Of a stretch of DNA of 64,000 nt, positions 3,333 through 33,993 are shown piece by piece. A program made the position numbers and the translations under genes. How positions within the stretch are numbered: the stretch's first letter is position 1; the number at the start of each line of letters is the position of its first letter. The notes under the pieces were generated by a model. That model had not been told where the DNA came from. It saw only the letters and a program-made list of their open reading frames with translations, and searched no databases. This DNA is from Haliotis cracherodii (lineage: Eukaryota), in NCBI RefSeq assembly GCF_022045235.1, contig NW_027266270.1, positions 34,348,001 through 34,412,000 of the forward strand, written 5' to 3'.

Positions 3333-3363
3333 ATGAGCTGCAACACTCTGCTGACTATAGCAG
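3333..3363 (+). CDS. Coding exon 1 (ATG, start of signal peptide MSCNTLLTIA)
   Basis: Acceptor TTTCAG ending 3294, ATG 3333, donor CAG|GTAAAA, phase 1 matching the next exon. Confidence 0.72.
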
Positions 3364-6300
3364 GTAAAACCTGGGTTTATAGTGAGTACGTGAGTTGGGT
3401 TTTAACGCCACTTTCAACAATACATGTAACGAAGTTATACCACGGCGTGTTAGCTTAATGTTGGAGAAAAAAACAAAGTGATGCAGGTCTGAGACGTCTA
3501 GAACCCACGACCACGGGTATAGTTCTGACAAACCCAAAATGATAACCGGGGCGAACCGGGATTCGAACCCAGATGGGTCTCTGGCGTTCCTAAGAGACGC
3601 AACTTTGCACAGCGAATTATGGCGCCTCAGGCGACAGGACCACCCGTGTCCCTTGGGTGTACATGTCATTAAACCTCGGTAACTCGAACTCGGTTAACTC
3701 GATATCTCGTTTGAAGTATGTAACTTTATGTTCACGGAGGAAAGTTAATCATCTCTCTTGCACATTGTCTCGAAATACGGATAAGGCGATTATATTTTTT
3801 TTTCAAGAATCTGTTAAAAAAGTTATATGCTGCATTTAGATATTCGATGTTCTTGGGTTGGAACAAAATCATCATTGGATATAACAGTACATTAATATTT
3901 GTGTAAGCTGTCAAAAACGACTTGCGACAACATATTGAAAACATTTCTTATAAATAGATACATCAACAATAATAGCTTCACACAGTGGTTATTTAAATCT
4001 TTAACTCAAAGACAACTGTTGACAACAATACGAAATGTGACATCGTTCGGTGCATTTATGGAGCACAAGTCCCGCCCATTCTATTATCAGCCAATCAGGA
4101 AACAACACTAGGTTAGTGGGCGTGGCCTACCTGTTTTTGATTTATGGAAACATAAAGGCAAAATAATTATTTGTTCAGACAAAAACCACGGATTTACTTG
4201 CAATATATTTATTTATTATTTATTTATTTACCTATGAACAAAAGTTTCTCGCCGCACTATAAGCTTTTTCTTCCCTCGCTGTTCCCAGCAACCTACCCTT
4301 GTCGTAAGAAACGACTTATTGGAGTAGGTGGTCAACGTTTAGTAGCTTAGTCGATTAGGTGGCCTAAGACGGTGTGGATCCTTGCTCACAATCAGTTACT
4401 GTGTTGTCTGGTCCAGACTCGATTATTTACATACAGATGGAATATCGACGAGAGTGGCGTGAAACAACAAATGAAAAAACATATCTGAACATAACCCGAA
4501 GTATGACTGTTGATAGTTTAAATGTAATAAAACATCTAATAATTGGTTTTGAAATGCACGATTTAAAATTAGATTTGTACAATTTGGCGTCATTGATTTT
4601 CGAACAGTTTCGAATAAACGTGCACCCCTGCATCAACTCTCAGAGAACACTCACAGAATTCTATGTATTCTTCCATAATATTGTCCAAGAGTAACCTCTG
4701 GGACAAACACCGACAGCGTGGCACGCGTAATACTACTTGTTGACGACGTATTTTCAGCACAGAAAGGCGTCTGTTGACACGTGATTATGTGCATGTCTTC
4801 ATTATGTGATGTAACTTGTCAACGCAGGTGGTTGTGTACATGTATATGTCGTTATAGGAGATTAACATGTCAATGAAGGTGTATATGTCGTTACATGAGA
4901 TGTAATAATGATAAAGTAGGACATGACACGTGTATTAGTCAAACATTGATGATCTTCCCTCCGGCAGTGTGGACGGTGTTGGTGGTGTTGGCCGTAGGCT
5001 GTGACGAGCAGTGCACGTCGGCGTTCCAGCAGCGCCTAGCGGAGGCGGCACAGGGCGGCAATGCTTCATCCTCCCTACAGAGAAGTTGCGAGTGAGTACA
5101 CGTTGTCTGTTATACGTTTATAACGAACATGCCTATAACGAACTGACGGATATGACGAACTTATTTTTTGTCCCGGCCACTGCTGTATATATTCTGTACA
5201 TATGCTTATATCGAACCACTGTTATAACGAAATAAAATTAGTGGCTTCTTTGAGTTTGTTATAACCGTAGTTCGTATGTCCGGAACATGTTCAAATTTAC
5301 CTTTATTTTGCATGGGTGGACAAGAAACATAAGAAGGTCCCGGGGGAAGAATAGAGATAACCAACAAAAGATTGATTTTGAGAAAATAAATTGAACATTT
5401 ATGGTTGCCTGAGAAAGATTGAAATAAGTTTGGGAAAGAAAGAAAATTCTTACTTGTCAAGTCATGTATGTTTACTTTACAAAAGAGATGCAGCCAACAA
5501 TGTTAATATAAGTAGGTATTTGAGATCTTTACAGACACACACCAGTGGACAAGAGAGTGGGCTATCGCAGTCTTCGTGAAAGGTGGTTGTCACCGTTTTC
5601 CCTGAAACTCGGACTTATTGACAAATCTCATTTGCAGATATAAAACTTTAAATACTGATTCCAACAGTCCGAGTTCATTTCAAATCAAAACATTAAACAG
5701 GGTGCCGAGGAACCTGCACAATTCAGACCTGTAAATACAAAAGGTAGACAAGAAATGTGATTTGCAGTCATTCCTGTAATGTTACAAATGTCAGTATTTT
5801 CACTACTAATTCTTCTGGTAGATGTAACAGTTGAATCTCAAGAAAGAAAACACTTTGAATAAGAATATGTAGATGGAAAAGTATTGCTTTTCCCGGTATG
5901 TTAAAATTAGTTGTGAAAGTTTGTGAGATGACCTTGAATGACATCCAACAGTAGTTTCATGTTTGCAGGGAAAAAACATGATTACCCTGTTTTGACAACT
6001 TTGCATTACAAAATAAAATTAAAAAAATATTCCGTTCAAACTTTTGAAAGATACTTCAGTATCTGGCAACCCACTAAATATAATTATCTCAAATTCTCTG
6101 GATGTGTGGCTTATCACTATCTTTCCCCGAGGCCTTCATTAACATACACTAGTTACCAACCAATCGAGCGATTAAGAAGTGGGTTTGCAGAGTTCGTCAG
6201 ATAGTGTGCGGGAAACCAACCTCGGTCTTCAGTCTGACGAGACGCTTCAGCACTTGTCTTTCCCGCTGCTCTGTGCCAAGGAAAATAATTTTATTTCAAC

Positions 6301-9300
6301 ATATGTCTCAAAATGTACAGAAGGAAAAATGGTTCACAATATAAAACAGTGAACTATTAGTATATTATGTCCAGCTGAATTGAAGAAATGTGTTGAATGA
6401 ATTGAAAGGTTCATAACAAATGCTTCCTTTACTTTCTGGGCCCACTCGCACAAAGCGATCTTAGCGCTACGACTATTGTAAGCCTATGTTAAAGCATGGG
6501 GATTACGATCATCTTAGCGCTAAGATCGCTTTGTGCAAGTAGGCCCTGATCCCTTATTTCTTTCTGTCAGTATATGATTTGTGACCAATAGACTGGAAAT
6601 ACCGATCTTAAAAACAATGTTCGTGACGTCATTTAATGATCAATATTATGATTGGATGGAACAGCCCGGAATCATTTCATTTTGTCCGATTCGACATGAT
6701 GGTTGTGTACTGTTCATGTATTTGGCGACTGCAACTCAGTGAAGAATACGACCCGCGAAGATCCGGGGTAGAATAGGTCTTCAGCAACACACGCTTGTCG
6801 TAAATGCGACTATACTTGACAGCCGTCATATAGCTGGAATATTGCTGAGTGCGGCGTCAAACAACAAACAAACAGTGAACAATACGTTTCTATCAATGAT
6901 ACGGTTCCAGGGCCATCAAACTGCACCTTCAGTGCCTGGGCGAGATCCGGGCCAGCTGTAACGCCAATCAGATTCAGATGGTGAACAGCACCATCACCAC
7001 CATGCAGGCCAACTACGACAGGTCCTGTACCGAGGGTGAGTACCGTAGTCACTCTGTTTGACGATTCTATGAGAGTCTCTGGTTCCACATAGGAGGTAGG
7101 AAACGACTGTTAATTATTATTTTATCCGAAAACATTCTGTTATATTAAAACATTAGTACGGAACAGCTATTTGTTAGTCAGGACGTTTGATAATTTGTCT
7201 GGTCATAAATAACGGCATCTTCCTGAGGCAAGGGAGTTAACTGACTAAAAGTCCAGTTTCCACCCTTGACGAACTAAGCTGAATTTTTGGGCTCGATCGA
7301 AGCGCCACCAGTGGCTATTACAAGCTATGTCCTTCTATGACCACCTTTCATATCACTTGCATTTGCTTCAAATAAATAGGCGTCGCCCAGTGAAGACGAT
7401 CTATTCGATAATCATGATCTATAAATGATAAAACGGTCTTACTTCGCGAAGTGCATCAACTCAAGGGAACACCTGGATTAGAAACATGAAAAGATTTGGA
7501 AAATATCTATTGACGCTAAGTTGTCGGTGCACATGCCGTGCAGTTTTATAACCGGATGTTGATTTCGTTACGCGATTTTGATTTAACCATGTATAGACTC
7601 GTTAGTCCAACCCAAATATAACTCCGAAATTGCAGCCTAGTTCGGCAAGGGTGGAAACTGGACTTTTATAGTCAGTTCACTCCCTTGTTTCGTGAAAATG
7701 AAATAACGGTACCGTTTTAAGTGTCCGGGCTTCTTCTGTAGATAAATGTGTATCTGTTTGTCAGTTGTACATATGTTGTTCCAGGAAGTGCCGGGGCGGA
7801 CGTTGCCAGCTGTGGAGCACGCTACGTGGTCTGCAACGAGAAGTTCAACGCCACCTTCTTCCCCGCGCTCAATGCGTATGATCTTACAGCGGCATGCGGG
7901 TGTGTACTTTCACTGACTTTCAAATGAAAATATATAGTTGTTTGGTTACTTTGGTTTGTCAATCCATTTACCTGTCATCACACCCTTGAAGATCCGAGTT
8001 ACAATAGGTCTTCAGCGACCCATGTTTGTCGTCAGAGGCGACTATTCTTGTCGTAAAAGGTGACTAACGGGATTGGGTGGTCAATTGCGAAGATCAATGC
8101 TCCTGATGTCAGTCATTGGAATATCTGGTCGATACTCGATTATTTACAGACCGCCGTCATTTATTTGGAATAGTGCGGCGTTAAACAACAAACAAACCTA
8201 TTATCTGGCTACTCTTTTCTTTATAATTTTTTTTTAAAACCAATTATGCACACTACCATGAATGAAAAAGTGATACGCAAACTTATAACAATCAACATTA
8301 ATAAGGCCCTAAGATCAAAACTGTCAAATCACTTGCAATTCGAAACGGGAACGGCTGGTATCACGAGTATTCACGAATGATACTCGATACAAGGAAGTGA
8401 AGCTGATGATCCTATTTCACTCTTGCCCCCCTCGCCAGCTCCCTGAACAACTACACGGCATGTGTGGAGTCGCTCCTCACGTCCCCCGACTGCTCTCAGT
8501 ATGCAGGATACGCCGTCAACACCATCAACGGCATCAGGACCCGCTACTCTTCCACTTGTCAGGGAGGTGAGTCACGCCATTAGAGTTATCTCCCTTTCAG
8601 ATTGGTCCAGCGTATTGTAAATGTAGGCAGTAACAATTAGTCTCTGAAAATATGTAATTTTGACTGAAAGAAGCAGCTACATATAACTTGAAAAGAAGCC
8701 CTAGTGACATGGGTCACGAACCTGTTAAAAATCTAGACTTGCTTCATTTAGGCCTATAGCCTCAGGGCTGGACGAAAGGGAAACATCCGGCCTATCCAGC
8801 TAACTTCAATCAATATCTAACCGTGGCACGGAATACATTTATATTTAAGAATATATTCTTACCAGTGCATGGTTTCTTCAATTCCTTTGCTTTTGTGCAT
8901 TTTTAAAACCACCCTGTCTGTGTGAGGGGATTCAGTGGGGTTGCCTGAGATTTCATTGGGGACAAATGTTTTACTTTCCTCAAACCTTCCATTGTAGCCA
9001 GAATGGGTTTTTTTGCGCCAAAGATGGAACAAAAGAATAGTTATTCCGTATTACAGTAACATATTTTGAGATCGTGTTGTCCACACACAAATACATTCTT
9101 CAAAACTGTCAAGGGTCGGAGTACTCTTCCAAGATTTTCTCAGTTTGATACAAGTCACTTCTTACAGCATCTTGATCTTGGGCTCCGGCCATTGGAGCAT
9201 AGTTCCTCTAATTGAATGTGTGATGAAGGCAATTATCTACACACAGACACTGCAACCACTGGAGCCAACATGGCGCGTTGTCTTAATGGAACCATGGAGT

Positions 9301-12300
9301 GCTTCACAACCTTCAACAGGACGTTCTTCCCATCTGTCCGGAAGTCAGACATGAGACTCATGTGCAGGTCAGGTCACATAAATGCTTCCGGTCGTATTGG
9401 CAATCTCGTATCCGCAGTAGACAGTCTTCAAAACATGAAGGTCCATCAGATTCTACATTCAGATATCGCTGAATCCCTGTTAACGCTGTTTTGAACAATA
9501 TTCCAGTTACATCACGGCGTGTCAGCTTAATAAGGGAGGAAAGCCCGGAGTGATGCATGTCTCAGACGTTTACCACTTTGGTTAGACCCACGAGCACGGA
9601 TATAGTGTTGTAAACCTAGAAACACTCGGGGCAAAACGGGATTCGAACCCACGACCATAGGTTTCTGGCGTGCCCAAGGGACGTAACTCTGCACAGCGAA
9701 TTGTGGCGCCTTAGACGACTGGGCCACCCGTGCCCCCTTTGGAAGAACGAGGGATTGTTGCTTTACAATGCAGTCTTTAAATTTATGAGCCGAGTAGAAC
9801 AGCCAATAAACGCAAACGTAGTTTTTTGATGATTTTGTTTGTCACCGACACTCGATACGTCCTTCAAAATTACCACTTCGCGAATTTCGCCTTTTGTTAT
9901 TTTCGCACAACCGTTTCTAACCCCATGTTTCTCCGACCTATCTTGCTATCGTATCAGTTCCTGTTTCATACTCACGAGCAGCCCCTGTTTACAAGGTACT
10001 GTGTTCTGTCTCTGTGTAGTTCTGTGTCCAACTACTCCAAGTGCATCAACGCCCTTGCTGCCGACACTTCCTGTAATCAGTACACGTCCCAGGCTGTCTC
10101 CAGCATACAGGTGCTCGAACAACAACACCAGGTGGCCTGTGGAGCGGGTAGGTAACTCTATAAAGGGGCATAACTCCTGTTATCAAGGCAAGCATGCACT
10201 CATCATATGAGTCTGCCTCTGTTTATCATTGGGAATATGTAATGTTAGAGGGTGGCAACCTTTCAACAAAATTATGTCCCAGCAGATACTATCTTAATTG
10301 CTTGCGAACCCAAAGTTATACTCCGATCTCTCAATAAATGGTGAGAAAGAGCCCAATTGAAAGATAACAAGACACTATTTCTCAACAAATCACATGACAC
10401 GAAAAATCATGTGTGGAGTGTGGATAGAAATATCCACCGACCAAGGATGTTTTAGATATAGAAAAAATGTTTGCACTGTCTATTATAAATACATGTTTAA
10501 TATAATTCCAAACCTAGGTAAAGAGATTCAGCTATAATATGCAAACAAAACACAGTGAAACATTGTTCTCTGATAGTGCCGTGGGATAGCGAAAATATAT
10601 AGTTAGTGTGAGACAAGGCGATTGTCGATGTGAGACAAAAATGGCGTTAAGGATTCAATAAGATTCGTAACATTACGTCCAACGCCAAATGTCGAGTTAC
10701 AAAAGTTCAACTTGACGCGGTTTCACTGTGAATGAGAACCAAAATGTTGCAGTGCACATACAGCCAGGAACCAGTCTCCACGAAAAGGAATGTAATACAT
10801 ATTCCCACACTGTAGGTATGGACCTAGGTATAACTGTACGGAATCCAGCATGAGACGTGACCATCAGTTGCGCTTTGTTGTGAATGACAATTTGACTGAA
10901 AAGTGAAATATTATGTCGTGAACGACATTTTACTTAATCATGATACGCAAAATGATTATTCTCAGTGTAACTTAAGTGTGACGTTGTTACGTTTAGATGG
11001 TGGGGCCAAAGCCACTGAGTGTTTGAGAAGCTTCAGGGACTGTTATCAGCACTTCAATGAAACTTTCAACCCAGCCGTTCAAGCCATGAACATTGAGAAA
11101 CTATGCGAGTAAGTATTTAAACACCACTGATTGGGACCCACCATTTCAGTTTTTTCTTAGAAACATTATATTTTCCGGTCACTGCTTCAAATCATGCATT
11201 TTTTTCTGTGAAAGGAGAAGCTGGACAAGTCAATTTGGATACTTTTAAATATTTTGTTTGGGACAAAACTATCCCGTAGAAAATGCATTTCCAGCAGCCA
11301 TGTGTTGCCAGTTAAGTATAATGCACTTGTAGCAATGATTCACAATTCCAATTATGTCTTTTCAATAGATCCGTTTCAACCATTGCCAGTTATATCAATG
11401 GCGAAAATGTAATTTTGTAGTCCTTACTTATTAATATCATCAACTGTTGTCAAGCAACATAGTATACATTATCTATTTAACAATAATGGCTACTTGGTCT
11501 CTTCACGTGTTCTATGAGTTTCTATCTGGTAGGAGTCTAGCGATGATTGTTACGTGGTCGCTACTGGTGTTGTCTTGTATTGCTTCACACGTGGAGTTTA
11601 AGGAATTTGATGAAAGTGTAAAAACTATTTGATATCTGCGATACAATGGTTTACACAAATGGATCTTTAAATGCACGTGGAAGGGTTGAGGCACATGGCA
11701 TGTTAAGACTGCAAACAACCTTATGTCTATGGATCCTTCCGCCGTACACTAAGCTCATGACCATCACCCTGGTTACGTAAAATAAAGAACCTGTATTCTC
11801 TGCTTGTGGGTTACACTACTGACTTCTCTTCGGTAGGTCCATGGACGAATACAAGGTGTGTTCAGTTGGAATACCTGACGACTGTGACAAGTACCTAGGC
11901 CAGTCCATTGACGGCCTGGACAGGATGCAGGCCCAGTACTCTCAGTACTGCACCCCAGGTAAGCTGGCTATACTCGCAGTACTGCACCCGAGGTAATATG
12001 GCTATACTGCACCCCAGGTAAGCTGGCTATACTCACAGTACTGCACCTCAGGTAAGCTGGCTATACTCACAGTACTGCACCCCAGGTAAGCTGGCTACAC
12101 TCACAGTACTGCACCCCAGGTAAGCTGGCTATACTCACAGTATTGCACCCCAGGTAAGCTTGCTATACTCACAGTACTACACACCGGGTTAGTTGGATAT
12201 ACTGCATAACGGGTAAGCTGGCTATACCAACAGTACTGCACCCCAGGTAAGCTGGATATACTCACAGTACTGCACCCCAGGTAAGCTGTCTATACTCACA

Positions 12301-15300
12301 GTACTGCATCACAGGTAAGCTGGCTATACTCACAGTACTGCACCCAAGGTAAGCTGGCTATACTCGCAGTACTGCACCCCAGGTAAGCTGTCTATACTCG
12401 CAGTACTACACCCCAGGTAAGCTGGCTATACTCACAGTACTACACCCCAGGTAAGCTGGCTATACTCACAGTACTGCACCCAAGGTAAGCAGGCTATACT
12501 CGCAGTACTGCACCCCAGGTAAGCTGTCTATACTCGCAGTACTACACCCCAGGTAAGCTGGCTATACTCACAGTACTACACCCCAGGTAAGCTGGCTATA
12601 CTCACAGTACTGCACCCCAGGTAAGCTGGCTATACTCACAGTACTGAATTATGCTCTGTGCCCAAGTCACGGTACTACATGGACGAACTGACATAGGTTG
12701 ACCCATGGTCTTTGCGAAAAAAGGGTGCACCCCTGCACTCGCCCAAATCCCATTCCACCCCTCCGCGTCCCTCTGGTTCCACCAGTAGACTGCATCCCCA
12801 AACATGTAATCTATGTTTTTGTATTTACCTGTATTTCCAGAGAACAAGATGATATTTGGCTGCACCCCCCTGTCCAAGTGTAACCGAAACCTGATCGGTA
12901 ACCTCACCGTCACCGGGGCGGAGTCAGGCATGCTGTGCATGTAAGTACAGATTGTTCTTTCTGCTCGTTATAGGTTGTATCAGCTCGTCACACGAAGCAC
13001 AGATCAATCGAGATCAGTCTCCCAAAATTGCTATAATATAGTTTTACTCTGAAGGTTTTGTATTGTGACGAGTTTTCGTTCACGGTACTTTGCATGTGAG
13101 GGAATATCTGCTTCTACGTTCATCAATCCTCTTAAGACACCCACACCACCCACACCCCTTCGACACGTCGATCCTGCGCGAATGTCAATTTAATCATGAG
13201 ACTGCTTCAAGATTGGCGCTGTCGCGTTACTGAGTGAGATAGTTCGTGTGTGCTGCTGTTACTATGACACTGTTTGTGTGTGACGCTGTTAGGATGGGAT
13301 GTCGTTAGTATGTGACGCAATTAGTTTGTGCGCTGCGCAAATGTCTATCCTGACTGTATCAATGAAACTGATTCAACATTGGCGCCGTGGCGTTACAACG
13401 TGACCTTGTTAACATGTGAATCTGTTAATCTGTGACTGTGTCGGTATGTGACGCTGTTGGTATACATTACGCTGTTAGCAGGTGTCAGGATGGGTTTAGA
13501 GCGATTATCAGCCATTTTGTAAGATCAACATCAGCGAAAGTGGTTCTGCGACTCGACACTTTTCTGAAACTGCAATGCCGCCCACCTTTAAGCACGTTAC
13601 TATTTCCCTGTCTCTCAGGGTACTCGAGACGTACTTCCCCTGTGTGGACGAGGCGGTCAAGCAGTGCCAACTATCTGGGGACGGGATATCTGCCATCTCC
13701 TTCCGTGATCTCGGCCTCCTCTCGTCCAGATACTGCCGGTCAGGTAAGTTTCCGCGCCGTGTTCCAGCACGTCTCAGGGATACAGCCGTTGTAAATCTAG
13801 GCTATATTGAGGTTAGATAATTGAAGCGCTTATTCCGCCTTGTGCATGTGGGTTTAGCAACTTAATTAAAAGCAGAGATATAAATTTGGCTGCCCGTCCT
13901 CTATATCTACGGACACACAACGAAAACGTGTTATCAACGTTAACACGAAGTACAAGAGAACGATTGTAGCTGTAAATATTTACTCGCATGACAAAGAATG
14001 ATGAATGTCTGAGAGAATTACATTATTTGTAGACCGGGGAAGATCCGGGTTGGAATAGGTCTTCAGCAACCCATACTTGTCGTAAGAGGCGACAAACGGG
14101 ATCGGGTGGTCAGGCTCGCTGACGTGGTTGATATATGTCATCGTATACCCAAACTCGATTATTTACAGACCCCGCGTCATATTGCTGGAATATCGCTGGG
14201 TGCAGCGTAAAACAACAAACAAACAAACAAATATGCTTAATTTCGAATACGCGTTTCCAAAGGTAAACGAGTTTATAGGTATAAGAGTAAGGCCTATAGA
14301 AGCGCTAGCATGGCTTTGTGAAGAAACCATCTATCTGGTCTGATTAAATCGGTGATCAAGAAACACGGCAACTCATTGATGTACAATCCCCGTGCTTTTA
14401 GACACGTGCCAGTTGTGTTTCGGCGATGTTCTATTTTCTATATCAGGTTGAATGGAGGTAGACATGAACGTGCTTGTGTTTCAGTGCTGGCGAACCCCGC
14501 CATCAAGAGCTGCATGAACTTCATGCAGTGTCACGCCGCCCTTGACCTTACCAACATGAGCCCCAGCATGATGGTGGAAGGAACCTATTGGTGCCAGTGA
14601 GTTGGATAGATGGCTAGATAGTCCGACGATGTATATATGGCTAGATACCTAGATACTAGTAGTCTGTTGATACATAGGTGGCTAGATAGATAGATACTGG
14701 AAGTCAGTTGATGTAGATATGGCTAGATAAATTTCGGAAATATGTATAGGTGGCTAGATAGATAGATTCTGGAAGTCTGTTGATGTAGATATGGCTAGAT
14801 ACCTGGATACTAGTAGTCTATTGATGTATAGGCGGCTAGATAGATGGATACTGGAAGTCGATGAATAGGTGACTAGATAGCTAGATAGTAGTAATATGTT
14901 TATGCAAAGGGGACTATAATCTAAAATCTGCTTTAATGATGAATAAGTAGGATACATGGCTAGATACTAGAACTCCGTTGATCTAGGTGGCTAGATACAC
15001 TGTTACGTATTTGTAAAAACCTATTTCATACATGTCATTTTTCTGTATTTTACTTATTGTAGACGGTCATATTGTTTTGAAATGTGCTTTAATGTCATTT
15101 TTATTTCAATCCAATGGATATTGAAAAATAAATTCTAAACAAAGTAAGAGAATACGGCCTGACGTACATGTGGACGATGACGTTTCATTGGTGTGTATTG
15201 TTGTCCAGCTACATGGAGTCGTCGCTCATATGCAGCTCTCAGCTCATCAACGCCGGCCACTGTAACGTCCGGAACAGAAACGACATGATCAACAACATCC

Positions 15301-18300
15301 AACGTCTCCGGCAGATGCAACAGACGACGTGTACAATAAGTAAGTGGATTAACTCATGTAAACATAAAACTGTTTATCATCGTTCCGGTAAAACATTTTA
15401 CAATGATGTTATTAGAGGGCACAATATTGTATATTTGTTTTATCTTTGATAAAATCTTTTCATGTTCGTTCCCTGAAAAATGGAAGAGAGTTACCTTTCC
15501 TTGTCTAAATATAGCCACCAGGTGTGCTGTCAAGTTTGAATTAGTTGTCTCCCCACTGAGAAAAAAACAAACCTAGTGACCTGGCACCAGATTATATTTT
15601 TTGTTGCTTATATTCTGAAGTGCTTGGCATATATATTGCAATATTGCATTGACTGACTGCTTAGCTGAATGATCGATCGAGGAATTAATGAATCAGAGCA
15701 ATGAATCATAATTCTTTTTCCTTTTGTTGAACTGTATTATAGGATTTAATGTTACTGAATTCGGTATCAGTCGTATATGTTAGATGGATGTATGCATTGC
15801 AATGACTTGTAATTCATATAGTATTATATATATATATATTAGAAATTGGTAAAGGTTATTATATCATCTTCATGGTGGGGGCGTTATCTTAAATATCTCG
15901 AATATGATTTAGATATATTCATTACACACCCAACTGGCACTGGTTACCCCTTCATAATTATTCAAATACTTTTGTTTTGCCCTAACCTGTTAAATATTGT
16001 CACCCTCCAGCCACACCCGCACCGACAACGTCAACGACTACCACTATGAAAACAACTGAGCAGCTGAAGGAAGGTAAGCCTGTCCATGACATCAGTATTT
16101 ACTTGAAGCAGTCGCAGTACATATACATCAATACTCAATGGTACTTACTGAGGTTTGGGGGGTTGACAGTAGTACTTAACATGATTTACCCGTCTTCAAT
16201 GTTTAATGTGTTCCCCGGATTCGTGGACATCCGGGTTAGAATAGTTTAACCCATGTTTGCTGTGAAGCCGACCATGCTTGTCATAAGAGGCGTCTTACGA
16301 GATCGGGTGGTCAGGATCGTTGACTTGGTTGATGAATGTCATCGTATCTCACTTGCGTGGATCGATGCTCATGATGTTATTCACTGGATTGTTTGGTCCA
16401 GACTCGATTAGTTACAGACCGCCGCCATATAGCTGGAATATTACTGAGTGCTGCGTTGAACCATAAACAAACAAAGAAATAATGTTCTCCCCTGTTGATT
16501 TGTGGGTAGAATAGGCTTGCGGTGTGAACCGGCTAAATTGGACTTGGCTGTCATTGTACCTTGGATTGTTGCCAGTGCTATAGCCCACCTGTTTGTCCTG
16601 TGTGGAGCCGAATATACTCAGACCACAGTGTAAACGCTGAAATATTGCAGCCTGGGGCCTGACACAACACTATCGGGGTCAGGCTCGTTGACTTGGTTGA
16701 TGCATGTCATCGTATCCCAATTGGTGGATCAATGCTCATGATGTCAATCATTAGATTGTCTGGTCCAGACTCGATTATTTACAAACCGCCGTCATATAGC
16801 TGGAATATTGCTGAGTACGGCGTTAAACAACAACAAACAAACAAACAAACAAACACTGATTTCATTTAAAATGACGGTCAGCAAGAATTTTTATAACGAG
16901 TTATGAACATATAGTTTTAGATAACCAGTTATTGCAACTGCTAATGATTTAATCATAATTATCTTTCGGGATAAGGCGCTTCATTACATAATCATGGTCT
17001 AATGTAGTTTTCATAGTCACCAATCACAATGCAAGATTTGATGTCAGGATAAAGATTTCATAGCAGAATACAACCCATCTTAAACACGTTTTAACATTCA
17101 ATATTTAGATTTAAGCAAGAAAGATGACGACAAGAAACAAGACAAAGTCACCGGGAATTCAGGTGAGATAGCATTTCTGTGCTGGGAATAGACACGGCAA
17201 AGTTCGACTCATGTATGGTCCTGTGTACATGTCATGACAACTTTGGCACCCTCAATAACGACTCGGGTTGTGAGGGCCAACATATTCGCTAGTTTTTACC
17301 CATTTCTGGTGTCTCATGCTGTGATATTGCTCGAATATTGAAAAAGGCGCCGTAAAAATCACTCACTCAGTAGTGTTTCGGGGGCATAGGTGGCTCAGTA
17401 GAATGAGGTGCCACAATTCGCTGTGGGGAGTTTCAATCCATGGATACATGGGTTCGAATCCCGGTTTGTCCCGATTATGTATAGGTTTGTCAGCACCATA
17501 ACCGACGTCGTGGGTTACACTTAAGTGGTAGTTTGAGACCTGCATCACTTCAGGCTTTCCTCACCCGTCAAGCTGACTCGCCGTGATATAACTGGGATAC
17601 TGTTGGAAGCGGTGTTAAACCAAACTCACTCACTCATTCACTCACTCAGTCCTAGTTTTTTATAATGTTAGGGTGACAGTGGCACTAGGTTTCCCCACCG
17701 ACTAACGGGTGACGGGTGCCACCGATGAGGCAGGACACGCTCACCTTTACGCGAACACCTGGTATTATCCGTTAATTATAGTGATTCATACACTCATGCT
17801 ATAGACGGAATCGTACAGTGGGCTGGCTACCTTTAGCAGACATGTCACCCCACGTTCACTACACCGTAGACATTTTGTCGCTTTTATTTCACTGCAATGA
17901 ATGCACTTCAAAACACCTGTAAATCTTTGATACGTCTTCGGGAATATTTTAGATGGTCAAAAGTGCACTCCGAGCGGATCGTACTTTGTAGTACTTCTTT
18001 AAATGTCACATTCATTCTTTTAGTTGCAATAAAACGTTATAGGCGAATATTAGTCATCTTCTCGGGGCAAGTGAATTAACTTTTAAAGTCCAGTTTCCAC
18101 CCTTGCCGAACTAGGCTTGCATTACTGGGCTCGATCGTAGCGCCACCGGTGGCGATTACGAGTTTTGACCCTTCTATGTCTCTCCCATGGACCAATCAGA
18201 TTCAACCCCAAGTATCACTTGCATTTGCTTCAAACAAAATGGCGGCGCTGAGTCAAGACGATCTGATCGATAATCGAGATATTTTGTGATAAAACGGATC

Positions 18301-18793
18301 TTACATCGCGAAGTGCATCTGAATACGTGAGCACCTTGAAGAAAATCGTGAAAAGTTTTGGAAAATATCTGTTGACACCGAGTTGCTTTGCAAATCCAGC
18401 AATCGCCCGAAATCTGCATGACAGTTTACGAACCGGATTTCGATTTCATTGCGCGATTTTTATTGGACTATGCATGGACTCGTTAGTCCAGCCAAAATCT
18501 AACTCCATAATACCAGCCTAGTTCTGCAAGGGTGAAAACTGGACTTTTATGGTCAGTTAACTCTCTTACCTCGGGAGGATGAATATTAGTCGAACACATT
18601 ATTTCAATATCTATACGATAGGTACATGACAACTTTATTTTTATTTTGATCTAATACGGAATAAATGATAAAGCAAGACGTTTATGTAAACTAAAAACAT
18701 ATTTTAATTTCAGGTTCTGCATCTACCTTGACCTTGAGCTTTGTAACCTTGGCCCTGACCTTCCTGGTGACCATATTCCAGCGTCATTCGTGA
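3333..18793 (+). CDS. Spliced gene, 556 aa: secreted/GPI-anchored protein with six tandem 6-Cys helical modules (RGM N-terminal/neuritin-like spacing)
   Basis: join(3333-3363,4968-5091,6911-7035,7785-7899,8439-8566,9247-9367,10020-10147,10997-11108,11837-11958,12841-12940,13619-13743,14485-14596,15209-15339,16011-16073,17109-17162,18714-18793) = 1671 nt, open, all GT-AG, phases compatible. N-term MSCNTLLTIAVWTVLVVLAVG; C-term GNSGSASTLTLSFVTLALTFLVTIFQRHS*. Confidence 0.88.
3391..3652 (-). mobile_element. SINE family A (tRNA-derived head, (ACTC)n tail)
   Basis: Matches the copies at 28009 and 46545; B-box GGTTCGAATCC on the minus strand. Confidence 0.8.
4968..5091 (+). CDS. Coding exon 2 (signal peptide end + module 1a)
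   Basis: GCAG| (V)WTVLVVLAVGCDEQC...LQRSC |GTGAGT. Confidence 0.88.
6439..6545. mobile_element. Short palindromic MITE, PIF/Harbinger-like
   Basis: TIR GGCCCACTCGCACAAAGCGATCTTAGCGCT; CTG flanks both ends; related copy ~19673-19780. Confidence 0.65.
6911..7035 (+). CDS. Coding exon 3 (module 1b)
   Basis: TTCCAG| AIKLHLQCLGEIRASC...YDRSCTE |GTGAGT. Confidence 0.88.
7216..7700. mobile_element. MITE family D, Mutator-like (9-bp TSD)
   Basis: ~65-bp TIRs CATCTTCC..GAGGCAAGGGAGTTAACTGAC..AAAAGTCCAGTTTCCACCCTTG; TSD AAATAACGG at 7207-7215 and 7701-7709. Confidence 0.85.
7785..7899 (+). CDS. Coding exon 4 (module 2a)
   Basis: TTCCAG| SAGADVASCGARYVVCNEKFNATFFP...AAC |GTGTGT. Confidence 0.86.
7982..8196 (+). 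mobile_element. SINE family B ((AAAC)n tail)
   Basis: ACCC.TGAAGATCCG.GTTA.AATAGGTCTTCAGC head and GCGGCGTTAAACAACAAAC tail; other copies ~4293-4470, 6751-6874, 14033-14230, 16222-16472, 16672-16854, 26992-27159. Confidence 0.75.
8439..8566 (+). CDS. Coding exon 5 (module 2b)
   Basis: GCCAG| SLNNYTACVESLLTSPDC...YSSTCQG |GTGAGT. Confidence 0.88.
9247..9367 (+). CDS. Coding exon 6 (module 3a)
   Basis: ACAG| TATTGANMARCLNGTMECFTTFNRTFFP...LMC |GTCAGG. Confidence 0.84.
9481..9737 (-). mobile_element. SINE family A
   Basis: Near full-length match to the family A consensus. Confidence 0.82.
10020..10147 (+). CDS. Coding exon 7 (module 3b)
   Basis: TGTAG| SVSNYSKCINALAADTSC...QVACGA |GTAGGT. 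Confidence 0.86.
10997..11108 (+). CDS. Coding exon 8 (module 4a)
   Basis: TTTAG| GGAKATECLRSFRDCYQHFNETFNP...KLC |GTAAGT. Confidence 0.88.
11837..11958 (+). CDS. Coding exon 9 (module 4b)
   Basis: GGTAG| SMDEYKVCSVGIPDDC...YSQYCTP |GTAAGC. Confidence 0.86.
11943..12646 (+). repeat. 34-bp minisatellite (~20 copies) made of the exon 9 end plus its 5' splice site
   Basis: Unit CAGTACTGCACCCCAG|GTAAGCTGGCTATACTCA. Confidence 0.95.
12841..12940 (+). CDS. Coding exon 10 (module 5a)
   Basis: TTCCAG| NKMIFGCTPLSKCNRNL...GMLC |GTAAGT. Confidence 0.86.
13619..13743 (+). CDS. Coding exon 11 (module 5b)
   Basis: TCTCAG| VLETYFPCVDEAVKQC...SRYCRS |GTAAGT. Confidence 0.87.
14485..14596 (+). CDS. Coding exon 12 (module 6a)
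   Basis: TTTCAG| LANPAIKSCMNFMQC...TYWC |GTGAGT. Confidence 0.87.
14605..14996. repeat. Degenerate GGCTAGATA-rich intronic repeat
   Basis: Recurring GGCTAGATA/GATAGATA motifs. Confidence 0.7.
15209..15339 (+). CDS. Coding exon 13 (module 6b)
   Basis: GTCCAG| YMESSLICSSQLINAGHC...QTTCTI |GTAAGT. Confidence 0.87.
16011..16073 (+). CDS. Coding exon 14 (Thr/Pro-rich stalk)
   Basis: CTCCAG| TPAPTTSTTTTMKTTEQLKE |GTAAGC. Confidence 0.82.
17109..17162 (+). CDS. Coding exon 15 (charged linker up to the putative omega site)
   Basis: TTTAG| LSKKDDDKKQDKVTGNS |GTGAGA; 54 nt, phase 1-1 (skippable in frame). Confidence 0.72.
17380..17648 (+). mobile_element. SINE family A
   Basis: Head GGGGCATAGGTGGCTCAGT, B-box, shared tail, (ACTC)n. 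Confidence 0.8.
18055..18581. mobile_element. MITE family D, Mutator-like
   Basis: Same TIRs and interior as 7216-7700; TSD AATATTAGT at 18046-18054 and 18582-18590. Confidence 0.87.
18714..18793 (+). CDS. Coding exon 16 (GPI-signal-like hydrophobic tail, stop)
   Basis: TTTCAG| SASTLTLSFVTLALTFLVTIFQRHS TGA; AATAAA candidates downstream at ~18988, ~19818, ~20187, ~20447. Confidence 0.82.
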
Positions 18794-19138
18794 AACGATT
18801 AACCCGTTAGTGGATAAAGTCAAATATGATGACGAACAAAACAGACTGCCCTCCAGTAATGCCAGTCTCAGAAAACTATAAGCCAACATCAGTTGAATGG
18901 ATGTTCTCGAAACTTGTGGAGAATAATTTGAAACTTATGTTTCTATCATCAGTCATGGTTCGTTGTCGTTAAGAAATTTAAGAAGTCAATAAAAATCTCT
19001 TAACCCTAAAATCTTTGAACATATAATTTGGTTTGTACATTATTTTCAAAATATTCTGCAATATTTCATAATTGGATATGCATTTGTGTGGTATTTGCTG
19101 GCATAGAGTAATAAGACTGTCATGTATGCACCTAACTG

Positions 19139-19669
19139 GGGTGTATTCACGAAGCTATCTCAGCTGAGCCCAGTCTTAGGGCTCACGGTGAAATTAACAC
19201 TACAACAAGAACTATTGTGGAAGGTATGTCCAAATTCTGACGACTGGCAACTCCACAGTTAATTTTGAAACTGCCTAATGTTGTTTGATCAAGCAAAGGT
19301 TTCAAATCACAAATTTACCTCTTATTCAAACGTTTGATGTGACGGCAGAATCACCACGGAAGATGCTTTTATTGAAAGTTCCTCTTTTCTCAATCATTGT
19401 CGGTTGGCATTTTGAAATGATATGTACAGTTGTAGGTTACAAACTGCAGTTACTTCAATATTGTATGTGGGTATAGTGGGTATATAGTATATACCGCCCA
19501 CATCAAGCTATCACGCCGTGATGTAATTGAAATACTGTTCAAAGTAGCATTAAACTTTACTCACTCACACAAACCCCTTCACAGTTCCGTCAGGTGGCGC
19601 TGGTGTCTCGATGACGGCACCTATCATTGCCAGGGCCGAGAACTCTGCGTAGGCTTCGTGTATAGACTC
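19139..19669. mobile_element. TIR element (Harbinger-like MITE) in the probable 3' UTR
   Basis: GGGTGTATTCACGAAGC ... GCTTCGTGTATAGACTC, CTG on both flanks. Confidence 0.55.
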
Positions 19670-20448
19670 CTGGGTAGCATTTCACAAAGCGATCTTAGCA
19701 CAATGACTGTCAAGACTCCCCTAGTTTTACACAGATCTACGGCAGTCATTCCACTTGGAGTGCTTTGTGAAACCAGCCCGCTGTATGTACTTCGCTTTTA
19801 TGACTTACCTGTTTGTAAATAAAGTGGAATTATATATGTATGTTTTCTGTGTAATTGACACTGTAATGACGTGGAAATAACATTGGGACTGAAACTTACA
19901 ACTTGTTCATCTTACTGCTCCAGTAACGTGTTATTATATTCATATATATATATGTTGTGAATGTAGATTATAACTATATCTGTCAGTGTGGTACTTGTGT
20001 ACAAACATTTTACCTGCCACGACCTACTTACACAGTATAAGCATGATAAAGAAAGCTAGATCAGTGTAGCATTGAAGTATTCGTGTATATAAATCGATGT
20101 CAAATTAATTTTGATTTTTGTTAACATTTGAATGTAATTATACACATTTAGGTTTGCTATAAGAAGAAACGGATTTTGGTGTTAAGAATAAATGTTTTAC
20201 ATAATTGTTAGATGCGTATGCTGTATATTGTTAAAATTTGATCATTTCGATTTACATATGAATGTTTGTTTAAAGTTGTTCTGATTGAAAAGTATATTTG
20301 AATGTTATTTGTTCTCTGTGATCATGTATAGATATAAGATTGTTAATCTCGGGAGATTACTTTTTATGGCCTAGTGTAAATATAGCTCTGAATGTAAGAA
20401 TCAAGAAAATTCAAATAATAGTGCTATCAGAGTCTTTATTGTGAAAAA

Positions 20449-20976
20449 TAAACTTTTCAATTGGAATATGTGTTACCATGGCAACATATATTGTTTTAGT
20501 ATTTCATAACCAACTTTTGCTCTGTAATTGTATGCCATTGCGTACGTCCTCTGAAATATGTTGGAGAAAGTCCGAGAAACGACATTTTTATTGGGGTAGA
20601 ATTTGTTACCATGACATCATATATTGTAGTATTCGATAAACCAACTTTTGTTCTACATGTATATGTGTATGTCATTGCCAACAGTTACCATGACAACAGA
20701 ATGATCGTAGTATTTTATAAACCAAATTTTGTTCTATTTATATGCTATTTCATACCTCCTCTGGAACATGTTCAGGAATAGAGAGTTAAATTGGAATAGA
20801 ATTTGTTTCCATGACAACATGTATTGTCTTAGTTTATAAACGAACTGTTGATTTATAACTGTATGTAATAGCATACGCCCTCTGGAATATGTTGGGTAAA
20901 GGACATTTATAATTGGAATAGAATTTGTTACCATGACAACAGATATTTTCTTAGTATTTTATAAACCAACTTTTTC
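20449..20976. repeat. Degenerate tandem repeat (~5 copies of GTTACCATGACAACA...ATAAACCAACTTTT)
   Basis: Motif recurs at ~20472, 20606, 20684, 20806, 20927. Confidence 0.75.
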
Positions 20977-21171: not shown

Positions 21172-22615
21172 TAGTGGGTTGCTAGCCATCTAGGTGACGA
21201 GAGAGTACACTTCCTAGTGGGCTGTTAGCCATCCTTAGTTGACGAGCGTGTACACTTCCTAGTGGGTTGCTAGCCATCTAGGTGACTAGAGAGTACACTT
21301 CCTAGTGGGTTGCTAGCCATCTAGGTGACGAGAGAGTACACTTCCTAGTGAGCTGTTAGCCATCTAGGTGACGAAAGAGTACACTTCTTAATGGATTGGT
21401 AGCCATCTAGGTGACGAGCGAGTACACTTTCTAGTGGGTTACCAGTCATTCTTTTGTGACGAGAAAGTACACTTCCTAGTGGGTTGCTAGCCATCTTGGT
21501 CACGGGAGAGTACACTTCTAAGTGGGTTGCTAGCCATCTAGGTGACGAGCGAGTACACTTCCTAGTGGGATGCCACTCATCCTTTTGTGACGAGAAAGTA
21601 CACTTCCTAGTGGGTTGCTAGCCAACCTTAGGTGACGAGCGACCACACTTCTTAGTGGGTTGCTAGCCATCTAGGTGAAGGGCGAATACACCTCTCAATG
21701 GACTGCTAGCCACCTGTGTGAAGAGCGAATACATCTCTCAATAGGCTGCTAGCCATCTGTGTGAAGAGCGAATACACCTCTCAATTGGCTGCTAGCCACC
21801 TGTGTGAAGGGCGAATACATCTCTCAATAGGCTGCTAGCCACCTGTGTGAAGAGCAAATACACCTCTCAATGGGCTGCTAGCCACCTGTGTGAAGAGCGA
21901 ATACACCTCTCAATGGGCTGCTAGCCACCTGTGTGAAGGGCGAATACATCTCTCAATAGGCTGCTAGCCACCTGTGTGAAGAGCAAATACACCTCTCAAT
22001 GGGCTGCTAGCCACCTGTGTGAAGAGCGAATACACCTCTCAATAGGCTGCTAGCCACCTGTGTGAAGAGCGAATACACCTCTCAATGGACTGCTAGCCAC
22101 CTGTGTGAAGAGCGAATACACCTCTCAATGGGCTGCTAGCCACCTGTGTAAAGAGAGAATACACCTCTCAATTGGCTGCTAGCCACCTGTGTGAAGAGCG
22201 AATACATCTCTCAATAGGCTGCTAGCCACCTGTGTGAAGGGCAAATACACCTCTCAATGGGCTGCTAGCCACCTGTGTGAAGAGCGAATACACCTCTCAA
22301 TAGGCTGCTAGCCACCTGTGTGAAGAGCGAATACACCTCTCAATGGGCTGCTAGCCACCTGTGAGAAGAGCGAATACACCTCTCAATGGGCTGCTAGCCA
22401 CCTGTGAGAAGAGCGAATACACCTCTCAATGGGCTGCTAGCCACCTGTGTGAAGAGCGAATACACCTCTCAATTGTCTGCTAGCCACCTGTGTGAAGAGC
22501 GAATACACCTCTCGATAGGCTGCTAGCCCTCTGTGTTACGGGCGAATGCAACTCCGAATGAGCTTCTAGCCATCTGTGTGACAGGCGAATACAACTCCGA
22601 ATGGGCTGCCAGCTG
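21172..22615. repeat. 43-bp satellite, ~33 copies, two subtypes
   Basis: TAGTGGGTTGCTAGCCATCTAGGTGACGAGAGAGTACACTTCC then CAATGGGCTGCTAGCCACCTGTGTGAAGAGCGAATACACCTCT; decayed units extend to ~22945. Confidence 0.95.
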
Positions 22616-28782: not shown

Positions 28783-29943
28783 TACTTAGGTCCGAGACCA
28801 TGGTCATTTTATATGAAATGTGTGTAATACACAAGATAATTATAGATTATATGTGTAACGCGAGATAAAAAAAACCTTTGATTGACCGCCAGAACGTTAA
28901 AAAACGCCCGGCCATTTTGTTCTGTTAGTTATGGTTTTGATGTGTTCCCAAAAATGTAGCATTTTACGAAGCAGAACTAATCATTAAAATAAATCCGTAT
29001 CTGCGATTCATTATGGACATAGGTTTGTAAATATTTGTCAGGGGGCCCCCATGACGAGAAATACCAGATATAGATTTGTATCTACCCAGGAACAGTGGGC
29101 CCAGGTGAATCTTCTAACACTAACGAGACAATGATGAACAGTTGTCGTAAATCAAACAATTCCGTGTTTTATAATCACCCCACGTCTAGACTCGTCCACC
29201 GCAAGGTATCGATTTTCACAGTTTAAGACCGAATCGAGTTTGATTGACGCGGGCCGCGTGAAATTAATACTTTTGACAACTGGGATCATCTCTCCGACAC
29301 TGGACAGCTGACCACTACACCGCCATAACTGGCATCTAGCGGCGACGTTTCGGGTCAAGGTTCACAGTAACGCACTTCCCGTGCTCTCCTGTCAGAAAAG
29401 GTCGGAAATTCCTCAAGAACACCAGGGGATGTGGCTTCCTATTGGCTGTGGATTGAGTTACACTGGGTGTACCATGACAGACAGAAGAAAGACGGCGAAA
29501 GGGAATAATTCATTGAGTCAGTGATAGACGAGGACACGGAATGCCGGGGTGTTGAGTGTGTGACCTATTGTGACAGAATGGTCATCATTGACCGACAGAC
29601 GACGCTAATCGCATACTTCTGTTATAACTAATACCATCTTGAATTCTGGAGGGAGTGTGGTCTCCAAACAATTTTCTTCCAGATGTTGAAGAAGACAAAT
29701 GTAACTGTATAATCCAATGCTACGATTTATATATATTGTTTGAGGCTGTTCTGTCCAATATGTAACCGATATTAATTCCATACAAGTGGCACTTCTGGTG
29801 TTGTCTTGTGTGTGCTGATTCGACATGCCTTTGTTCTTTAAGACTGTTAAGACTGCAGTCAGCGACCTAGACTAATATATGATATACAAGTATATGATAT
29901 TTGTATCAGGGTCTGTCAGACAGACTATCTGCGACCAAAATAT

Positions 29944-30605
29944 GGCAACTATTGTCGGCGGCCTACAGAAGGCAACTATTGTCAGCGACCTACATAAGAC
30001 AACCGTTTACAGCAGCCTATATAAGGCAACCATTGGCAGCGACCTTCATAAGGCAACTATTGTCAGCGACCTACATAAGACAACCGTTTACAGCGACCTA
30101 TATAAGGCAACCATTGTCAGCGACCTATATAAGAGAACAATTGCCAGCGACCTATATAGGGCAACCATTGGCAGCGACCTTCATAAGGCAACTATTGCCA
30201 GCGACATACATAAGACAACCGTTTACAGCGACCTTCATAAGGCAACTATTGCCAGCGACCTACATAAGGCAACCTTTGGCAGCGACCTTTATAAGGCAAC
30301 CATTGTCAGCGACCTATATAAGACAACCATTGCCAGCGACCTACATAAGGCAACTACTGCCAGCGACCTTCATAAGGCAACCATTGTCAGCGACCTACAT
30401 GAGGCAACTATTGCCAGCGACCTTCATAAGGCAACCATTGTCAGCGACCTACATAAGGCAACTATTGCCAGCGACCTTCATAAGGCAACCATTGCCAGCG
30501 ACCTTCATAAGGCAACCATTGTCAGCGACCTACATGAGGCAACAATTATCAGCGACCTATATAAGGCAACCATTCTCAGCGACCTACATAAGACAACCAT
30601 TCTCG
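29944..30605. repeat. 27-bp minisatellite, ~24 copies
   Basis: Unit AAGGCAACTATTGTCAGCGACCTACAT; explains ORFs 29879-30814 and 29901-30614. Confidence 0.95.
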
Positions 30606-31178
30606 TTCGTCTAGTGTGTACGAACTTAGAATACCGTAATACTCGTAATACCGCGAGTTACTGGGTGCGTCTGTTTCGGGCAGGAATCGAACATCGAACA
30701 CTAGCATATACCACTGCATATATCCCTGGTTATGCAAATCATAATCAACGCCAAAGTCGTGTTCAAGAATATTGCACTGATACAGCCACGTGCATACACA
30801 CTTACCATCTGTAAACGTCTTTTGATATGACACTGCGACTCAAACCCCCGACCTTCCGCTCTCCGGGCAAACGCTCATCTACTAGACCACGGAGGCGGTC
30901 TGAGAATGAATCAGGTGCCAACACGCTTTTGGTATTCTGGATGCCCCAGTGCAATACGCAGGGTTCCATGAAAAGTTTATCGGGTACGCGGATGCCAGTA
31001 TTTCATTTTGGAAAGATATTTTTCCTCTTTTTGATTTGTAAAAAGTGACAAATCCATTGAGTATTTAGCCCCCTGCTTATGAGCACGCATGGTAAAACAT
31101 TCTGTATGACAACCCTAGTCCAGTTTACTCGTATGATCTGTATGCTCTCCTATAACTCAAGTGTTCTTAAATTGGAGT

Positions 31179-31432: not shown

Positions 31433-33190
31433 TCTTAAATTGGAGGATAGTTGGCACCCTTTGTTAGAGTTTGAAGGAATTTCTGCAATATTTTCAATGG
31501 AGATGCGTATTGTTAACAAAATAAATCTTTAAGAAGACCGGGTGATATGTGTTTTTCTATAGATTTATTATTGAAAATAATATTTAAGTGATTGGTTTTC
31601 GCCAGTATTCCAGCCATATAACGACATAAAAACATAAACATGACAGGCTAACACATGATACCCATGTGGGATATCGAAGCATGACGAGCGAACACTTTAC
31701 CCACGCGACCACCCTATGCCCCGTATACATTACAGAATACGACTCCACATATTCCTAGGGTGATTTATAAAAGCTATCCTACCTTTTAACGTGTGGATAT
31801 ATTTCTTCACTCGCCACGTGTCATTGTGAAATCGTTTGGTTAACAGCCGACATATTTTGTTGCCTTCGAACTATCGAAGCCGACCCATGTGTCTATCCCG
31901 AAGCTTTTAATTCATGGCGATCAGCCTCCTATGTCACTACGGGCTCCGACACAAGCGTTTCATTGGGTTTTCGATTGATTTAGCTCTTGTGGCTGATTTG
32001 CCCAAGGAGGGAAATGGATTTATTTTGACAGAGTAACGTACATTCCAGTTCTAACAGTGACATTGATGCTGTAATGTTTTGTCTCTGCACTGACGGGGCA
32101 GCTGATGTGTGAAGTTCTCACGTTAGACCATTCCAGCATGCTTCGTGGATAATCAGGATCTGTGTCCTAAGTACCTCGTTATTGTAACTGCAGAATCTAT
32201 ATTACCTTGCATCTAATGCTGATCTTGATCCGATAAGACAAAACAGAACCAAACTTGGATCTGTCAATATGATGAAATATTTCAATGTGTCTTGAACTTA
32301 ATTCCAACGTAAATTGTGATGAAAATAACCTTTTCTTTTATATGTGGACGTCTCCACAGCAACGGTATTCAACTGTTGAGCATTGATAACAGAATGGGTT
32401 GGTCCATAAATGCAAGTACCCATGGTAACACACTACTTGTCGGTTTGTGAATCGGTAAACCAAACAATATAAATTTAATATTCATGTCTTGTTATACAAT
32501 TTTTCAGTCTCATTACTTCCTGTAGGACATGCGTGGGCCTCTGACGAAATGTCGAGAGTTTGAGGGCAAGTCATAAAATATGTTCTCATAAATGACGTAT
32601 GATGAAAATACACTCTCGCTGATGAATTTCTGTGACAATCCATATGTACATATTTTGTTAGTTTGCTCTGGTTATAACAAGCTACGCGAGGATCACTTAC
32701 CACAAACATTTAATGAATATCCGACCATACAAAAATTAATATAAATTATCATTATGTCTACAACTGACTGTAAATTAATTGAACGTCTAGCTATCTATAT
32801 CTATCAAGCGATGTCACTTCGTAGTACATTATTGTCACAACAATAACAGCTGTGTACATCACGTCCATTGTAATACAAATGTAACCATGGGCCGATGGCC
32901 CACATTTACGAAATAAACCGAATTGAAATTGATATCGCATTGGGCTTTGGACCGAATACGTAACACATTCCACAATTCACGAAGCAAATCTGGTCTAGTG
33001 GATAGAGCGTCACACACACACTTCAATAATCTTAAACGCAAAGTTAAACCCCATTCTTAAGCGCGACGTTAATCCCCATCTCAGCTCACCTCTAAGAAAA
33101 CGAAGCCATCATATAGCTGGGATATAACTGCACGCTCGAGTTGCACAGCAGGATGATTTTATTATTATTGAAAGTGAAGAAGATGTAGAC

Positions 33191-33910: not shown

Positions 33911-33993
33911 ATTCTGCCCTACTAAATAAAAACTGCCAAACTTTCTGGAGTAGTGTTAAACGTTTATTACAGTACCGCAGTCGAAAATCTGGG

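Follow-up and report, generated by a model that had tools for sequence, protein, structure and literature searches.

Gene structure

The window analysed here is a stretch of 64,000 nucleotides from the abalone Haliotis cracherodii (contig NW_027266270.1, positions 34,348,001–34,412,000 of the forward strand). On its plus strand, at 3333–18793, lies a gene for a protein with six cysteine-rich modules that resemble the N-terminal domain of the repulsive guidance molecules (RGM-N). The gene has 16 exons, all introns are GT-AG, and the exons join into one open frame of 556 amino acids with 37 cysteines. This exon chain had been drawn from the DNA alone in a first-pass annotation and was borne out. 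The start ATG at 3333 and the end of the stop codon at 18793 were both exact, and 556/556 residues were identical to XP_071099682.1, an H. cracherodii RefSeq model that may derive from the same assembly and would then not be independent of the translation. The Haliotis rufescens orthologue LOC124112266 was identical at 545 of 556 positions and had 469 positions in common with the Haliotis asinina orthologue. RefSeq already models the gene, as an uncharacterized protein with no domain or function, and four relatives carry a DUF19 label in UniRef. The features of the gene are listed below, with support or remarks in brackets.

3333–3363, plus strand: first coding exon, start codon and first half of the signal peptide (RefSeq identity)
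4968–5091, plus strand: exon 2, end of the signal peptide; module 1, Cys1–3
6911–7035, plus strand: exon 3, module 1, Cys4–6 (module 1 = residues 22–91, best RGM-N match)
7785–7899, plus strand: exon 4, module 2, Cys1–3, with the F-N-x-T sequon at N115
8439–8566, plus strand: exon 5, module 2, Cys4–6
9247–9367, plus strand: exon 6, module 3, Cys1–3, with sequons at N188 and N198
10020–10147, plus strand: exon 7, module 3, Cys4–6
10997–11108, plus strand: exon 8, module 4, Cys1–3, with a sequon at N278
11837–11958, plus strand: exon 9, module 4, Cys4–6
12841–12940, plus strand: exon 10, module 5, Cys1–3 (contigs)
13619–13743, plus strand: exon 11, module 5, Cys4–6, with conserved Y-F-P-C-V and F-x-x-L-G-x-L (contigs)
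14485–14596, plus strand: exon 12, module 6, Cys1–3, with invariant Trp446 before Cys3 (contigs)
15209–15339, plus strand: exon 13, module 6, Cys4–6 (contigs)
16011–16073, plus strand: exon 14, Thr/Pro-rich stalk (contigs)
17109–17162, plus strand: exon 15, charged spacer up to the omega region (contig spacing, RefSeq identity)
18714–18793, plus strand: coding part of exon 16, small-residue omega candidates (residues 528–532), hydrophobic tail and stop (contigs)
18794–20600, plus strand: 3′ untranslated region, at least 1.6 kb, with one contig continuing past 20600 (contigs)

Contigs from four of the 23 listed runs were aligned to the region 12700–20600 only; none of the runs is on record as RNA, and their RNA nature is a guess. 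In all four runs, contigs passed from exon to exon over exons 10–14 and left out the four introns at their GT..AG borders, as only spliced molecules would. In three of the four runs, exon 13 and position 18709 were separated by 112 nt in one contig, the length of exons 14 and 15 minus a 5-nt overlap; this spacing is indirect support for the joints of exons 14 and 15. The spliced contigs confirmed the 3′ joints of the chain. Exons 1–9 lie outside the aligned region and are based on the database models and the intron pattern. An acceptor AG ending at 3295 implies a non-coding exon upstream of 3333.

A 34-bp minisatellite of about 21 copies (11937–12646) begins inside exon 9 and repeats the last bases of this exon together with its splice donor, so that many decoy donor sites follow the exon. 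At position 14555, the letter in one run (X1) turns Asn434 into Lys and the module 6 sequon is lost, which is probably a species difference.

Modular architecture of the protein

The cysteine spacings of modules 1 to 6 were 3-24-8-7-22, 6-20-8-9-21, 6-20-8-9-21, 6-20-8-7-21, 5-18-8-7-22 and 5-20-8-9-22. They fit exactly the ranges reported in the first-pass annotation, including the invariant x8, which was found in all six modules, and the F-N-x-T-F-x-P motif ascribed there to modules 2–4 was present in all three. All six modules had introns at the same two places, one of phase 2 at Cys3+1 and one of phase 1 at Cys6+3. A module is thus a phase 1-1 unit made of two exons, an arrangement that usually marks exon duplication. 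Identity between the modules was 15–31%. Modules 2, 3 and 4 were alike beyond their cysteines (z 8.3–8.9; 0/500 shuffles with fixed cysteines scored as high), module 5 was not distinguishable from background against the other modules (z 0.5–1.7), and modules 1 and 6 were intermediate. The protein contains 10 sequons, and the cysteines of the modules would be paired in disulfides.

The six modules cover the whole ectodomain, and the protein has neither an enzyme domain nor a membrane span, and no tail on the cytoplasmic side. Hydrophobic stretches (KD19 > 1.5) occurred only at the two ends; the C-terminal one is followed by only four residues, which leaves no room for a cytoplasmic domain. The Thr stalk, N-S-G-S and hydrophobic tail described earlier were all present. 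N-S-G-S reads N-S-D-S in H. rufescens and so is not a conserved motif; the omega candidate common to H. cracherodii and H. rufescens is S-A-S at 532. Small-residue triads lay 24–28 residues before the protein end. By a rule requiring a hydrophobic tail and such a triad, applied by us in place of a trained predictor, nine of 12 proteins had a glycosylphosphatidylinositol (GPI)-type signal; two fragments and one near-duplicate were kept outside the 12. The sequences thus point to attachment of the protein by a putative GPI anchor.

Distribution and conservation in gastropods

An exhaustive phmmer search returned 12 relatives at E ≤ 0.001, 10 of these at E < 1e-30. By source name all were gastropod (Haliotis, two from Patella, Gigantopelta, two from Babylonia, Pomacea, Batillaria, Elysia, Plakobranchus, Bulinus and Physella), and these genera come from across the main clades of the class. 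Bivalves, cephalopods and annelids gave no match in this one search, by which a restriction to gastropods is not established. Word-index homolog searches gave two abalone proteins only, though more relatives exist, and were uninformative on range.

The modules were 83–94% identical to those of H. asinina, against 54–67% for the signal peptide, stalk and tail. From 11 proteins, 57 of 66 possible modules could be cut, nine being absent or too short. A tree of 51 modules (H. asinina left out) over 75 columns left many forks open and had one Plakobranchus row mislabelled owing to its partial model. Modules clustered by position in this tree, which needed 6 label changes where shuffled labels needed 33.3 on average (0/200 shuffles as low). 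The arrangement in six modules is thus an old one, and one module is not equivalent to another. The sequon after Cys2 was kept in 9/10, 7/11 and 7/7 copies of modules 2, 3 and 4, respectively, and modules 5 and 6 kept motifs of their own, including invariant Phe375 and Trp446.

The cassette of modules 4–6 aligned to two further gastropod proteins, a Patella paralogue and a Babylonia immunoglobulin (Ig) protein, with hhalign probabilities of 97.9 and 97.6. The former (Patella caerulea KAK6170222.1, 294 aa) consists of the cassette only and a GPI-type tail, with a weak NRN1 match, and offers a compact model for structure and binding work. The latter (Babylonia areolata LOC143301237, XP_076471483.1, 1558 aa) comprises a signal peptide, five Unc5_NetrinR_N stretches and further Ig domains, the cassette and a GPI-type tail. 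It is one predicted protein in one species, and it may lie on the same chromosome as the six-module orthologue of Babylonia. Ig domains were absent from the abalone gene and from the window, and no tandem paralogue of the gene was found within the window.

Probable relationship to the RGM N-terminal domain

AlphaFold2, given 11 sequences, predicted an all-helical protein with about three helices per module and no beta strands (mean predicted local distance difference test score 70), in agreement with the three-helix modules proposed in the first-pass annotation. A three-module Gigantopelta model agreed with the abalone model; the two share one alignment and are not independent.

Pfam, PDB sequence and structure searches together supported RGM-N as the closest solved relative of the modules, as had been suggested from the cysteine spacing; the RGMB chain does read C-x4-C-x22-C-x8-C-x7-C-x21-C. 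Pfam RGM_N was matched in 9/13 proteins (E 1.6e-5 to 0.4), one of them above the gathering cut-off (Gigantopelta orthologue, 25.5 bits; cut-off 24.2). The full-length abalone scan used the H. rufescens and H. asinina sequences; Pfam scans of 12 single module exons gave nothing meaningful (best E 0.011). When family profiles were run against 177,635 PDB sequences (E ≤ 10), RGM chains made up five of seven matches with one profile and five of five with the other; TRIAP1 (E 0.28–0.39) was found with one profile and not with the other. Cys2–6 were in register in the RGM alignment and Cys1 was one residue off, and non-cysteine positions aligned as well: F after Cys2, Y before Cys4 and I..L/M in helix 3. 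The full protein compared with PDB sequences by phmmer reached E 0.68 at best, with integrin and tryptase noise. Among 48,161 chains searched by structure, RGMB (6z3m_C) ranked first for module 1 (Z 9.4, root-mean-square deviation 2.8, 69/74 residues aligned). For the Gigantopelta model, RGMB ranked eighth (Z 9.0, top 9.9) with the highest identity of 50 rows (20%), and RGMC ranked 25th. No row of a whole-protein ESM Atlas structure search exceeded the naming bar. GFR-alpha, saposin, albumin and Frizzled-CRD were in none of the Pfam, PDB sequence or structure lists, which is absence from lists and not exclusion.

Several results count against reading the protein as a GPI-anchored array of RGM-N-type modules. 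The RGM matches among PDB sequences were weak (E 0.013–0.51; 0.013–0.23 for the profile with five of five), and the H. rufescens orthologue scored 19 bits for RGM_N, below the Pfam cut-off. A Z of about 9 ties with MIT, NOT and designed bundles and lies below the approximately 13 that the tool asks of helical bundles, and neither model had a Foldseek match at E ≤ 0.001. It is chiefly modules 1–3 that carry the RGM match, modules 4–6 being barely covered structurally, and at a predicted template modelling score of 0.37 the relative placing of the modules is not fixed by the model. Three of the 12 proteins checked lacked a full GPI-type signal (Patella the tail, Elysia and Bulinus the triad).

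Taken together, the Pfam, PDB sequence and structure signals, each weak alone but concordant, make it very likely that the modules are homologous to RGM-N. The likeness could instead be convergent, any three-helix bundle with x8/x7 cysteine spacing scoring in this way, and the tie in Z with unrelated bundles, PDB sequence E-values above 0.01 and structural identities of 12–20% fit such an origin. It is nevertheless clearly unlikely, given that RGM chains were five of five matches while other Cys-rich helical PDB families did not turn up, that one orthologue passed the curated RGM_N cut-off, that positions other than cysteines aligned, and that the context (secreted, GPI-type tail) is alike.

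With RGMA, RGMB and RGMC/hemojuvelin (RGM_N, PF06535) the abalone protein shares the six-cysteine three-helix module with near-identical spacing, the signal peptide and the GPI-type tail, and RGMs were its best sequence match and joint-best structure match. It differs from them in having six copies of the module instead of one, in lacking both the C-terminal beta-sandwich (vWF-D-like) neogenin-binding domain and the GDPH autocleavage site, whose reported absence was confirmed, and in modules that lack the RGD/RGN-L..H BMP-binding loop and carry a glycan sequon on helix 1. With the C-terminal domain, GDPH and BMP loop all absent, classification as an RGM was rejected; the protein may be RGM-like in the broad sense of a GPI-anchored co-receptor.

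Absence of the BMP-binding loop

In RGMB, according to the accessible text of PMC7354924, contact with BMP/GDF ligands (GDF5/BMP2) is made by Gly101, Leu103 and His106 in a loop just after Cys5; mutation of Gly101 weakens binding, mutation of Leu103 or His106 abolishes it, and RGM-N alone suffices for GDF5 binding. R-G-[DN] and G-[DN]-L each occurred in 0/57 gastropod modules. Counted from Cys5, Gly was at +2 in two of the 57, Leu at +4 in six, and His at +7 in one and within +5 to +8 in four. The post-Cys5 loop of module 1, the most RGM-like module, varied more among orthologues than the corresponding loop of any other module (mean majority 0.34).

The first-pass annotation had suggested a BMP/TGF-beta co-receptor or ligand trap. 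On this reading, the modules would engage BMP-family dimers at their type I receptor site in the manner of RGM-N, with avidity from several modules. RGM-N is indeed the closest solved relative and can bind GDF5 by itself; in one register, Ile takes the place of RGMB Leu103 in abalone module 1, and in Patella module 1 Cys5 is followed by R-G-L. Unrelated proteins dock at this site on BMP through one hydrophobic finger residue on a helix (PMC11167000, accessible text), and an RGMA-scaffold design of about 17% identity bound GDF15 (PMC13234300, accessible text), so the motif is not the sole route. Against this stand the missing binding-loop residues in the 57 modules and the variable loop of module 1. 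Beyond the fold, we found no positive support for BMP binding, and to judge from the sequences it is decidedly improbable. The term multivalent, if meant for one ligand, is doubtful as well, the modules being 15–31% identical to one another and each remaining distinct throughout the gastropods. A BMP held in the manner of RGM is probably not the partner.

Proposed role

We consider it reasonably likely that the gene encodes a GPI-anchored, N-glycosylated gastropod surface protein for binding or adhesion, with specialised RGM-N-type modules and a partner other than a BMP. Its ectodomain would consist of six three-helix bundles of the RGM-N type in a row, each stapled by disulfides, which arose as the two-exon phase 1-1 unit was duplicated before the main lineages of gastropods diverged. 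The Thr stalk would hold the protein off the membrane, so that the chain of rigid bundles is presented to an extracellular partner. A binding role, as ligand, co-receptor or adhesion partner, is suggested by the lack of an enzyme domain, membrane span and cytoplasmic tail; any signal would pass through another membrane protein, as for RGM and neuritin. Module 1 would sit at the tip. Modules 2–4, alike and glycosylated on helix 1, probably form an extending rod, and the membrane-proximal modules 5 and 6 are the likeliest conserved functional core, since they have conserved motifs of their own and recur in other proteins. We infer this division of labour, like the binding role itself.

Neuritin/CPG15 is a small GPI-anchored helical cysteine protein. 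Its family (NRN1, PF15056) gave the top Atlas structure row for module 2, a neuritin cluster with a template modelling score of 0.67 by query and 0.38 by target, under the naming bar. It differs from the abalone protein in having one module, and the Atlas clusters shown were chordate. The neuritin likeness claimed earlier held as a lead, in this row and in an NRN1 match on the Patella paralogue (E 0.49); it failed on the two abalone proteins, where NRN1 gave no match at E ≤ 10. A special case of the surface binding protein proposed here would be a cue for nervous-system wiring or growth that acts on a receptor of neurons, whether within the netrin/UNC5/neogenin circle or in the way of neuritin. 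The Babylonia protein, in which modules 4–6 and a GPI-type tail cap five Unc5_NetrinR_N stretches and further Ig domains, speaks for such a cue, as do the neuritin row and the action of RGM with neogenin and netrin described in the accessible text of PMC10084454. As context, only the fusion gives a clue, towards cell recognition or guidance; it is a single predicted protein from one species, and Ig domains are absent from the abalone locus. NRN1 was matched by only one of 13 proteins, and the neogenin-binding domain of RGM is absent. On this evidence, a neural cue is unlikely.

The other families that came up were DUF19/T20D4.11-like (PF01579) and the DUF1397 27-kDa haemolymph proteins (PF07165), which are likewise secreted Cys-rich invertebrate proteins. 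On the model of nematode DUF19 and insect DUF1397 proteins, the gene product could be a glycoprotein of barriers, immunity or mucus surfaces with no part in signalling: a scaffold that resists proteases under a coat of glycans, or a decoy that binds pathogens. UniRef names four of 11 listed relatives 'DUF19 domain-containing', Atlas feature leads were DUF1397 (0.79) and DUF19 (0.77), and the 10 sequons and Thr stalk would suit such a scaffold. Direct scans with PF01579 and PF07165 matched 0/13 proteins, with HMMER filters dropping most matches above E 0.1, and Atlas scores below 0.9 are leads only. The window has no tandem paralogue. Fast-evolving immune families usually lack a fixed layout and high identity such as that found here (six modules, 83–94% identical between abalone species). 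A barrier or immune role thus appears improbable, and the links to neuritin, DUF19 and DUF1397 are leads only.

More speculatively, the module may have been expanded in gastropods into a set of GPI-anchored co-receptors (the six-module protein, the three-module paralogue and the fusion to five UNC5-like Ig tandems) that bind TGF-beta-family or netrin-pathway partners off the RGD loop, a lineage-specific rewiring of BMP and axon-guidance signalling. We regard this as a rather remote prospect, and favour the GPI-anchored binding or adhesion protein with a non-BMP partner.

Other features of the window

Two 892-bp direct repeats, 99.8% alike (36565–37455 and 40095–40986), flank a single unbroken minus-strand frame of 794 codons (37625–40006) that matched Pfam Baculo_F (E 3e-18) and in which hydrophobic stretches and a furin-like site are present. 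All other frames between the repeats have 111 codons or fewer, so that gag and pol are absent. The region 36565–40986 looks like a recently inserted env-only element of the long terminal repeat type, with approximate ends. It is flanked by reverse transcriptase remnants of the long interspersed nuclear element type, at 33128–35415 (RVT_1, E 3e-29 at 33901–34962) and at 40903–41679, the latter assigned by eye with no Pfam match. Further minisatellites lie at 1405–1788, 14605–14891, 21172–22613, approximately 29900–30800 and approximately 58060–59680, of which the last two make long low-complexity pseudo-open reading frames. Rfam gave 0 matches.

Significance

The gene had already been modelled in RefSeq, and molluscs have many uncharacterised Cys-rich GPI proteins, which limits the weight of the finding. 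No paper on this family or on an RGM–neuritin–DUF19 link was found in the open-access literature, supplements excluded. What the locus holds is a real, conserved and new tandem variant of a known domain type; the earlier fold call was right and its ligand call unsupported. The accessible text of a review states that the RGM N-terminal domain has not been reported outside RGMs (PMC10084454); the gastropod protein has the fold without being an RGM, in tandem copies that are delimited by exons and conserved among gastropods. There is a hint that RGM_N, neuritin, DUF19 and DUF1397 may form one superfamily, which, if true, would give structural handles on several families without a known function. 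The gastropod modules are also natural variants without the BMP motif, with which it can be asked what lets this scaffold bind BMP.

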